Part shown: positions 37,517 to 39,382 of the stretch, piece after piece
Layout of the letters: each line of letters opens with the position of its first letter
Numbering within the stretch: the stretch's first letter is position 1
NCBI GenBank assembly: GCA_963712745.1
Contig: CAVQJC010000001.1
Location: 192,001 to 256,000 of the forward strand
Reading direction: 5' to 3'
From: an uncultured Chloroflexia bacterium
GTDB taxonomy: Bacteria; Chloroflexota; Limnocylindria; Limnocylindrales; CSP1-4
DNA length: 64,000 nucleotides
The notes under the pieces: model-generated
What the model was told of the DNA's origin: nothing
Seen by the model: only the letters and a program-made list of their open reading frames with translations
Databases searched by the model: none
Made by a program: the position numbers and the translations under genes

Positions 37517-39382
37517 CTACTCGAGGTAGTCCTTGAGCTTGCGGCTGCGCGACGGGTGGCGCAGCTTGCGCAGCGCCTTGGCCTCGATCTGGCGGATGCG
37601 CTCGCGCGTGACGTTGAACTCCTTGCCCACCTCCTCGAGGGTGCGGGAACGGCCGTCTTCGAGCCCGAAGCGCAACTGAAGCACGCGCCGCTCGCGTCCG
37701 GAGAGTGAGTCGAGCACCGCCTCCACCTGCTCCTTGAGCAACTGGTGCGAAGCGGCATCGGCCGGGGCCAGCGCCGCACGGTCCTCGATGAAGTCGCCCA
37801 GGTGCGAGTCCTCTTCCTCACCGATGGGCGTCTCGAGCGAGACCGGCTCCTGCGACACCTTGATGATCTCGCGGACCTTGTCAGGCGTGACGAGGACGAC
37901 GTTGTCGATCTCCTTGTCCTTCTTCTTGGGCAGCTTCACATCGTACGAGTGGCCCGAGCCGATGATGCCGTAGTCGTCGCTGACCTTGGCCTTCACCAGC
38001 CGGTCGTCGAGCACGTGGACCGTGATCGTGGCCTGCTTGCTGGTGTTGACCTCGATATGCGCGAAGTTGGCGGCACCGCCGAGCCGCTTGAGGATCTCGG
38101 TGGCGAACTCCGGCCCTACCGTCATGGCGAAGGCGATCTCCTCCACGGTCGGCTCACGGCCGAGCTCCTGGAGCAGGCCGCGCGAGACGCGGATGAGGCG
38201 GTTGATGGTCTCGACCATGTGCACCGGGATGCGGATGGTCCGCGCCTGGTCAGCGATGGCGCGGGTGATGGCCTGGCGGATCCACCACGTCGCATAGGTC
38301 GAGAACTTGAAGCCCTTCTCGTAGTCGAACTTCTCGACCGCGCGGATGAGGCCGATGTTGCCCTCCTGGATGAGGTCCAGGAACGACATGCCGCGGCCGA
38401 TGTACTTCTTGGCGATCGAGACCACGAGGCGGAGGTTGGCCGAGGTCAGCGACTCGCGGCCCTCGCGCCCGTAGCGCACCACGATGCCCCGGCGATTGCG
38501 CGGCTTGAGGTGCTCCTGGGTCATCTCCGGGTCCCAGCCCCAGGCGTCCATGACCTCGGCTTCCTTGCCGGCCAGGACGTAGCGGCGCAACGACTCGTGG
38601 GCCAGGTGCTGTGACCAGTCGTAGAGCGCGCGCAGGCCCTTGTTGTCGCGGCAGTCCTGGTTGCCGTTGTGCACCGACATGTAGCTGAAGTCGACCAGGC
38701 TCAGGAACTTCTCGGTGTCGGGCGCTTCGTTGTACTCGGCCAGGACCTTCTTGGCGTCCTTCAGGAGCGCCTTGACCTCATCCTCGCTGGCCGCACGCTG
38801 GGCGCCGGTGAGCTTGAGGTCTGGTGCGGCGACGAGCAGGCCGTCCTTCTCGGCCGACGCGAAGGCACCCGAGACGATGCGCGCGGAATCGGCCGCGAAA
38901 TAGTCGAGCCGGTGCTCGGGCCGCTTCTGGCGGGAGGCGTGCTCGGTGTCGTTCTTGGTCCACTCCCACAGCGAGAGCGTGGCCCTCCATGGTTCCTCGA
39001 CGATCTGCTCGCCCAGCTCGATGGCCTTGGCGAAGACGACCTCCTCCTCGGCGTTGAGGAGCGGGACCTTGCCGATCTCCTTGAGGTACATGCGGACGGG
39101 GTCGTCGATGCCGACCATGTCCTGGGCCATGGCTTCGAGCTCGGCCTGGGTCGAGGGCTTGTCGTCCTCGTCCTCATCGATCTTGGCCGGGGGCTCCTGC
39201 CAGGGCTGCTTCTGCGATTCTTCGACCGTGACCTGCACGCCCAGCTCCGCGGCCGCGCCGAAGTTGCGCGGTGCGCCGATCACGTCTTCCTGTTCGGGCT
39301 GGACGACGTCGCCGTCGATATCCCGCTTGCCGCGCTCGAGGACCGAGGCCACGAGCAGCTTGTCGGTGGCGTCAGTTGCCAT
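37517..39382 (-). CDS. rpoD: primary RNA polymerase sigma factor RpoD, with insertions
   Basis: [78 protein letters not shown]. Confidence 0.97.

Follow-up and report, generated by a model that had tools for sequence, protein, structure and literature searches.

How does a housekeeping sigma factor come to carry a small folded domain in the middle of its domain 3, and what could this domain do there? The question is raised by the rpoD gene of an uncultured Limnocylindrales (Chloroflexota) bacterium, which lies on the reverse strand of a 64,000-nucleotide stretch of genomic DNA (GenBank assembly GCA_963712745.1, contig CAVQJC010000001.1, positions 192,001 to 256,000; this whole stretch is called the window, and coordinates refer to it unless another contig is named). 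Primary sigma factors belong to the most strongly conserved proteins of bacteria, and the few lineage-specific additions to them, for instance the non-conserved region, proved to be regulatory handles. In the RpoD of the window, residues 421–496 form an insert in region 3, which is genuine and inherited and very probably derives from a glucose-type EIIB domain of the phosphotransferase system (PTS). A metabolic signalling fold would here have been recruited into sigma domain 3, beside the helix that reads the extended −10 element.

The Insert in Region 3 of RpoD

The 621-amino-acid protein scores 381.5 bits against TIGR02393 (RpoD_Cterm, cut-off 354), and its open reading frame (ORF) is the only one in its own genome (84.55% complete) with a Sigma70_r3 match above the cut-off. 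The full-length RpoD equivalog models remain below their cut-offs (508 versus 572 and 504 versus 555), as is expected from the extra insert and the divergent non-conserved region. Judged by these profiles, the protein is RpoD, the housekeeping sigma factor of this organism. Its Sigma70_r3 domain is split at residues 421–496, and the second stretch occupies residues 498–543 (profile positions 32–77 in Pfam). The initial sequence-only reading, which had noticed an in-frame insert in region 3 of the primary sigma factor, was thus correct on this point; it had placed the insert at 37895–38120, of which the lower end stands, while the upper end has to be moved by two nucleotides to the codon boundary at 38122. 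The gene is organised as follows:

37517–39382, reverse strand: rpoD, primary (group 1) sigma factor; ORF of 621 amino acids, stop codon included (TIGR02393; Pfam r1_2, r2, r3, r4)
39005–39103, reverse strand: sigma region 1.2, residues 94–126 (Pfam PF00140, Sigma70_r1_2)
38444–39004, reverse strand: lineage-specific non-conserved region between regions 1.2 and 2, residues 127–313 (no Pfam domain)
38237–38443, reverse strand: sigma region 2, residues 314–382 (Pfam PF04542)
38123–38236, reverse strand: region 3.0/3.1, helices 1 and 2 of sigma domain 3, residues 383–420, the N-terminal flank (first Sigma70_r3 stretch; aligns with solved sigma chains)
37895–38122, reverse strand: the insert, residues 421–496, probable degenerate EIIB(Glc)-like domain with a basic tether (fold and profile comparison)
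37934–38122, reverse strand: predicted folded part of the insert, residues 421–483 (AlphaFold2 models)
37895–37933, reverse strand: Lys-rich tether of 13 residues (484–496) that leads back into helix 3 of sigma domain 3 (low model confidence; conserved motif)
37754–37894, reverse strand: helix 3 of region 3.1 and region 3.2, residues 497–543, the C-terminal flank (second Sigma70_r3 stretch; aligns with residues 488–535 of E. coli sigma70)
37556–37717, reverse strand: sigma region 4, residues 556–609 (Pfam PF04545)

The insert lies between EEIAFAM and VTPDKVREI. Insert-less relatives of the same genus in the GTDB have a turn of seven residues here, in agreement with the earlier remark that the site is normally a short turn; 77 residues replace these seven, with a net gain of 70 amino acids. 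All 49 solved sigma sequences that match the protein do so as two stretches on either side of the insert, and none has an insertion at this place. Alignment to the solved chains puts the site at about residue 487–488 of E. coli sigma70, which we take to be the turn that joins helix 2 to helix 3 in sigma domain 3.

Several independent observations show that the insert is not a product of chance or of a chimeric assembly. It is carried by 45 loci with 29 distinct sequences, all of them in frame. A pattern scan of species-representative genomes recovered 27 loci, all in metagenome-assembled genomes (MAGs) from several projects that are labelled Chloroflexia, Chloroflexota, or Candidatus Limnocylindrales. 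Contigs from public sequencing runs span the insert together with its upstream junction (X2 record 30, 37939–38155, with no differences; X1 record 4, 37930–38251); for the lower junction at 37895, no bridging contig with at least 31 letters was found among the matches listed. An assembly chimera, the possibility that the sequence-only reading had set against itself, is therefore ruled out by the 29 in-frame versions from independent MAGs and by the junction-bridging contigs. A search of the own genome with a hidden Markov model (HMM) of the insert found no second copy elsewhere.

Contigs from RNA libraries also cover part of the insert, one of them (X16 record 22) identically over 161 nucleotides; DNA carry-over is possible in such libraries. 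Each sequencing run contained at most 0.40 of the sampled words, and no claim about habitat or expression is therefore made. Contigs of the insert-less allele, in which 24–30 letters that read as EAMSKGQEVQ replace about 240, are present in the same metagenome and metatranscriptome runs (X2 and X16, window 37891–38132) as the insert-bearing allele, so insert-bearing and insert-less organisms co-occur.

Relationship of the Insert to the EIIB Domain

The inserts can be divided into types A (76 residues, found in the window), B (83 residues), and C (78 residues). Type C was detected by a family-wide search and a class-wide HMM search in five genomes of three genera; it occupies exactly the same site between the same flanks and ends in the same basic tether, with 28–34% identity to type A.

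An AlphaFold2 model of the insert alone, based on an alignment of 16 inserts, has a predicted local distance difference test score (pLDDT) of 74.6 and comprises a helix, two strands, a short turn, two more strands, and a disordered Lys-rich tail (H4–13, E20–26, E32–37, E52–56, and E59–63 in insert numbering, with low pLDDT in the tether at positions 68–76). In protein numbering, the helix takes residues 424–433, followed by GG at 435–436, N439, and strands at 440–446, 452–457, 472–476, and 479–483. The same elements appear, with pLDDT of 83–89 in blocks of ten residues of the insert, in a model of residues 94–621 from a 38-row alignment, which is poor elsewhere, e.g., in region 2. In this longer model, the helices of the non-conserved region (about 187 residues, its length being kept across the family) are predicted well, with pLDDT mostly of 80–96.

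When compared with the PDB by Foldseek, the insert model retrieves glucose-type EIIB structures at all of ranks 1–6 (1o2f_B, 3bp3_A, two PtsG-type models, 3bp8_C, and 3ipj_A; probability 0.99–1.00, TM-score 0.52–0.61, E 0.05–0.15). VIA-align, run against 48,161 representative chains, gives 3bp3_A first (Z 5.8, root-mean-square deviation 2.6, 61 aligned residues) and 3ipj_B second (Z 5.1), the third row having Z 4.0. The modelled fold thus has the helix–hairpin–helix–hairpin order and the four-stranded antiparallel sheet of EIIB, although the scores are modest and the last EIIB helix is missing.

Profile comparison points in the same direction. The EIIB alignment consisted of 15 bona fide domains, 14 from Chloroflexota genomes (found with PF00367) and one from E. 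coli PtsG. Against it, hhalign aligned columns 5–46 of the 16 inserts with a probability of 87% (P 4e-6, score 33.6); none of 200 column-shuffled controls reached this score (mean 10.5, maximum 23.7), which lies about nine standard deviations above them, and the reversed alignment scored 9.1. With 22 inserts, the probability rose to 95% (P 3.7e-8). Type C alone gave 94.7% with 37% identity over 46 columns, a similarity that takes in the strand–turn–helix after the hairpin. By eye, ..AAVGGRDNV..FE....VRLSIADREKVDVAGL of type C parallels ..AAFGGKENI..LD..ITRLRVSVADVSKVDQAGL of PtsG. PF00367 itself is the only or the top Pfam family (of 24,736) for all five type C inserts (16.0–19.9 bits, E 5e-4 to 8e-3); among the 16 inserts of types A and B it matches one, at E 0.1. 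The EIIB(Glc)-like pattern proposed from the sequence was thus recovered by Foldseek, VIA-align, and hhalign, and descent of the insert from an EIIB(Glc)-type domain is well supported and, in our judgement, highly probable.

The active site of EIIB is lost. In the hhalign alignments, the position of the phospho-accepting Cys is occupied by Lys in type A, including the window, and by Arg in type C, and none of the 29 distinct inserts contains any Cys. Types A and B have ATIT in place of the TRLR motif, while type C keeps only its second Arg; at the aligned Cys/T-R-x-R positions, the window has K-Q-A-T-I-T, and type C has R...N-P-G-V-R. Compared with EIIB, types A and C have three additional residues in the former active-site loop, and in type B this loop exceeds that of type A by seven more. 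The C-terminal helix of EIIB is replaced by the Lys-rich tether. The absence of the phospho-Cys and of TRLR had been noticed from the sequence alone and is upheld by the alignments. Without the phospho-Cys and its flanking arginines, and with the C-terminal helix gone, the insert is incapable of phosphotransfer.

G15, G16, and N19 (insert numbering) are invariant in types A, B, and C. The best conserved part across the types is the tether, with its LP-basic-basic-K-acidic-K-E pattern: among the inserts of A2, L64 and P65 are invariant and K66, K67, D69, K70, and E71 nearly so, and in type C the motif reads ELPKRKDKE or ELPRKKEKE.

Variants, Distribution, and Evolution

Among 41 related genomes searched, 12 of the same GTDB genus, the own genome included, gave a single full-length match of 85–93% identity, and eight further genomes of the genus showed the insert-less pattern of two contiguous matches (residues 2–425 and 496–621). 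G015 has a fragmented insert-less match, G006 is an ambiguous case at a contig end, and G011 has a frameshifted pair; in two of the 41 genomes, no match was found. A sister family of genomes of about 1.1 Mb is without the insert. The contig-end case of G006 (L013, G006:C366) has an rpoD ORF that changes after approximately residue 395 to Proteobacteria-like RpoD sequence and looks like a chimeric contig end within a conserved region.

The gene order dnaG–rpoD is common to type A, type C, and insert-less relatives. In the window, the neighbour is:

39372–41327, reverse strand: dnaG (primase), ORF of 651 amino acids directly upstream of rpoD (TIGR01391, 389.1 bits versus cut-off 283.6)

The end of dnaG with its stop codon shares 11 nucleotides with the beginning of rpoD (39372–39382), an arrangement that suggests translational coupling of the primase and the sigma factor.

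The insert is found in paralogs as well. A second RpoD with a type B insert is encoded away from dnaG in at least six genomes (L021, L022, L023, L024, L014, and L052; G021:C6, G022:C14, G024:C1, G005:C6, G011:C3, and one further MAG). This paralog is about 77% identical outside the insert; frameshifts, which may be assembly errors of long reads, interrupt its copies in G024, G005, and G011. P0003 (705 amino acids) is a third, divergent sigma factor with a type A-like insert. Its N-terminal half is unrelated, and its region 3.2 is altered and very acidic (VSLDEELERDDDDDG...); to judge from the sequence, it may be a group-2-like derivative of an insert-bearing rpoD.

In a sample of the class, 11 of 401 genomes matched the insert HMM, ten of them in the host family (nine of 137 plus the own genome); in the family-wide search, G405 is counted as insert-less. 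In three other families, the HMM found no match in 16, 92, and 2 genomes, respectively. One weak partial match came from G671, and no claim is based on it. The distribution is patchy even within one GTDB genus.

Comparison of RpoD across related genomes, which the sequence-only reading had proposed for dating the insertion, showed that the insert occurs in several lineages. In a tree built after removal of the insert columns, the genes with an insert are found at three positions: one is shared by types A and B, a second is that of type C from two genera, and at the third the type C gene of G688 stands next to a gene without insert from the window's genus. The approximately unbiased (AU) test rejects a single clade of genes with the insert (log-likelihood lower by 94.8, p-AU 5e-6); the test, which omitted P0003 and L014, set 16 rows against 12, preceded the addition of L052 and L089–L091, and concerned a group named after the tree was built. 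The simplest reading is a single fusion origin; afterwards, either alleles were exchanged by way of the nearly invariant flanks, or the insert was precisely lost many times.

The C-terminal domain of CarD (PF21095) was also searched for as a possible covariate. It was found in none of 41 Limnocylindrales genomes, with or without the insert, and in five of 14 controls; the Limnocylindrales genomes searched may lack CarD, and the domain is therefore uninformative as a covariate of the insert.

Possible Role and Alternative Explanations

The proposed picture is that of an EIIB-derived module whose 70 amino acids interrupt sigma domain 3 where helix 2 turns into helix 3 (region 3.1). The insert has retained the helix-GG-x-x-N-hairpin core of EIIB and its order alpha-beta-beta-(alpha)-beta-beta. 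From the insertion turn, helix 3 of sigma domain 3 leads to region 3.2, the part that reaches into the core enzyme; the turn therefore lies at the core-distal end of the sigma-3 bundle. It is also close to the midpoint of the long helix by which the extended −10 element is read. In this position, the 63-residue globular module would sit at the core-distal end of the three-helix bundle, exposed to solvent in the holoenzyme, and the 13-residue Lys-rich tether (LPKKKDKE) would run beside the helix that reads the extended −10 element and the spacer, near promoter spacer DNA. The insert could then serve as a lineage-specific accessory module that either offers a docking surface to a protein partner or makes backbone contacts to promoter spacer DNA, and that is maintained by selection but dispensable in sister lineages. 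Taken as a whole, this statement has, in our view, a slight edge over all other readings combined; each of the two sub-mechanisms taken singly, the docking surface or the DNA-backbone contacts, is considerably less probable.

A bolder version can also be considered, in which the EIIB-derived cassette would be an exchangeable in-frame sigma domain of soil Limnocylindrales that rewires initiation wherever it is present. It would have spread between rpoD alleles by homologous recombination through near-identical flanks, or its distribution would result from repeated loss; the rewiring would consist in tethering a lineage-specific regulator to sigma domain 3 or in clamping spacer DNA by the Lys-rich linker. 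If this were true, closely related species with the same core machinery would follow different rules of promoter use. We regard this version as unlikely.

Several points weigh against the accessory-module reading, and some of them favour particular alternatives. The placement of the module is predicted from the general topology of sigma domain 3. The patchy distribution and a dN/dS (the ratio of nonsynonymous to synonymous substitution rates) no lower than that of the non-conserved region would also fit a tolerated passenger, i.e., an EIIB-derived fragment that entered a permissive turn of sigma domain 3, folds harmlessly, and is under selection only for folding. Most relatives do without the insert, only nine of the 137 other family genomes of the class sample carrying it besides the own genome, and the length of the former active-site loop differs between the types. 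Among 12 type A orthologs (66 pairs), dN/dS of the insert is about 0.30–0.37 and that of the non-conserved region about 0.24–0.31; regions 1.2, 2, 3, and 4 have values of 0–0.03, with dN = 0 in region 2. By these codon comparisons, the insert is under purifying selection at a dN/dS of about 0.3, a value equal to that of the non-conserved region. A mere passenger, however, would hardly be expected to stay in frame in 29 distinct sequences, down to the 28–34% identity between types A and C, to be kept in two or three paralogous sigma factors, and to conserve the basic tether and the GG..N core in all types. This explanation is rather doubtful, though more probable than the other alternatives.

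The synonymous rate of the tether in the same 12 orthologs is low (dS 0.088 versus 0.25–0.58 elsewhere in the gene), which may reflect codon bias or a constraint at the nucleotide level; this low value is drawn from 13 codons, a sample too small for a judgement.

The remaining points concern the origin of the insert, and some of them speak for a convergent look-alike, a small alpha/beta module unrelated to EIIB that happens to share a common arrangement and a GG motif. The structural scores are modest: no Foldseek match reaches E ≤ 0.001, the EIIB rows staying at 0.05–0.15, and the VIA-align Z values are below 6 and thus under 8, a range that the tool's own note calls common. The models rest on shallow alignments, as the pLDDT of 74.6 for the insert alone indicates. 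The insert of the window alone has no Pfam match at E ≤ 10, and none of the inserts tested reaches the gathering cut-off of PF00367 (27 bits), from which it follows that the insert is a degenerate derivative and not a member of the family in the functional sense. An HMM of the 16 type A and B inserts, searched against 1.84 billion representative proteins, matched no EIIB protein; of its nine matches at E ≤ 0.001, six are sigma factors or fragments of them with the same insert. A look-up in a protein atlas gave no usable match, and a word-index search with the type C insert returned two further sigma proteins and no EIIB permease. Against convergence stand the two aligners, which independently place only EIIB entries on top, the hhalign score reached by none of the shuffled alignments, the leading position of PF00367 for every type C insert, and the 37% identity of type C to the EIIB profile over 46 columns. 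Convergence is accordingly judged improbable, and derivation from EIIB is retained.

The other three HMM matches, P0006, P0009, and P0010, were judged to be artefacts of summed short motifs, each being made up of many short stretches of about 30 positions. P0006 and P0009 are long repeat proteins; the repeat of P0009, ATITVPVLDDALVE, resembles a strand of the insert and is presumably Calx-beta-like.

If the insert does derive from EIIB, it might be thought to work as a PTS-linked sensor that informs RNA polymerase of the carbon status, for example by contact with HPr, EI, or an EIIA. Complexes of EIIB(Glc) with EIIA-Glc and with Mlc are known (PDB 1o2f and 3bp8, by their titles), and HPr, the N-terminal and mobile domains of EI, and EIIA-man are encoded in the same genome. 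These PTS parts, however, belong to a single operon together with DhaK and DhaL, which lies outside the window (G000:C1, approximately 118.7–123.1 kb; L072, 6700–11100) in the order EIIA-man, HPr, DhaK (Dak1), DhaL (Dak2), and EI, and which by its gene content is a predicted PTS-dependent dihydroxyacetone kinase. The EI ORF of 259 amino acids includes only the N-terminal and mobile domains, and the neighbouring ORFs tested have no Pfam match; the gene may be frameshifted or truncated. Searches of the own genome (84.55% complete) gave no match to EIIA-Glc (PF00358), EIIC (PF02378), or EIIB (PF00367). Of 301 Chloroflexota genomes, 15 have PF00367; in the host family, a search of 15 other genomes did not find it. 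Since neither the Cys nor the TRLR arginines are left, and since the 84.55%-complete genome gave no match to EIIA-Glc, EIIB, or EIIC, a role in the PTS phosphorelay is unlikely, and the sensor as a whole is very improbable. Of the suggestion in the sequence-only reading that a co-opted, non-catalytic EIIB fold couples transcription to a partner protein or to carbon status, the structural part holds, and the carbon-status part is weakened.

A remnant of a selfish element (an intein or homing-endonuclease relic) in an essential gene might be suspected from the patchy distribution at one exact site of a highly conserved gene, from the rejected single clade (p-AU 5e-6), and from the SCOP fold that EIIB(Glc) shares with LAGLIDADG endonucleases, but it is scarcely credible, since 76 residues are far below the minimum intein length of about 130, no Hint or LAGLIDADG match exists in Pfam, a homing endonuclease appears only at Foldseek rank 32 (probability 0.05), and the C-terminal junction lacks His-Asn (it ends in ..NVV and is followed by Leu, Val, or Ile), an intein being rejected on junction residues and length.

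The accessory module of RpoD, if it is one, would be of interest in several respects. Close relatives with and without the insert, together with the paralogs that keep it, constitute a natural experiment on new surfaces of RNA polymerase. Catalytically dead PTS domains would be reusable outside the PTS, here in a lineage that yielded no sugar PTS. Annotation by Pfam does not reveal the domain combination: for two type C proteins, the precomputed Pfam entries are sigma domains only. The organisms are uncultured, which sets a practical limit on studies of function.

Comparison with Known Systems

An RpoD with a degenerate EIIB-like domain in sigma domain 3 is apparently an undescribed combination. 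A full-text literature search, within the portions of the texts that it returned, found neither a sigma factor with an EIIB domain nor an insertion in region 3.1, in line with the earlier statement that no RpoD of this architecture was known.

The closest relative in structure is the EIIB domain of the glucose/sucrose class (PF00367; E. coli PtsG residues ~400–477; 1o2f_B, 3bp3, 3bp8_C, 3ipj). Both begin with a helix ending in GG-x-x-N; a beta hairpin comes next, and a short helical turn separates it from a second hairpin. The profile similarity extends over insert columns 4–46. In contrast to EIIB(Glc), the insert has no phospho-Cys, its TRLR motif is altered, the loop is longer, a tether takes the place of the C-terminal helix, and its scores are below the Pfam cut-off; moreover, it is embedded in a sigma factor and not in a permease, in a genome where no EIIA-Glc or EIIC was found.

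Lineage-specific insertions are well known in the transcription machinery, where they include the non-conserved region of sigma between regions 1.2 and 2.1 and the sequence insertions of the beta and beta-prime subunits. Like the insert as it is modelled here, these are independently folded modules in surface elements of conserved subunits, restricted to certain lineages and evolving much faster than the core; the dN/dS values of about 0.3 for the insert and for the non-conserved region of the same protein agree with this. The insert differs from them in its site at the turn between helices 2 and 3 of sigma domain 3, in its recognisable origin from a PTS domain, and in its patchy occurrence within a genus.

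Finally, EIIB(Glc) sequesters the regulator Mlc, which binds to the surface around the phosphorylatable Cys of membrane-anchored EIIB. The EIIB(Glc)–Mlc complex (PDB 3bp8) is a precedent for the use of this fold as a docking surface for a transcription regulator, apart from sugar transport. In the insert, by contrast, the Cys loop is remodelled and varies in length between the types, and the domain is tethered to RNA polymerase.

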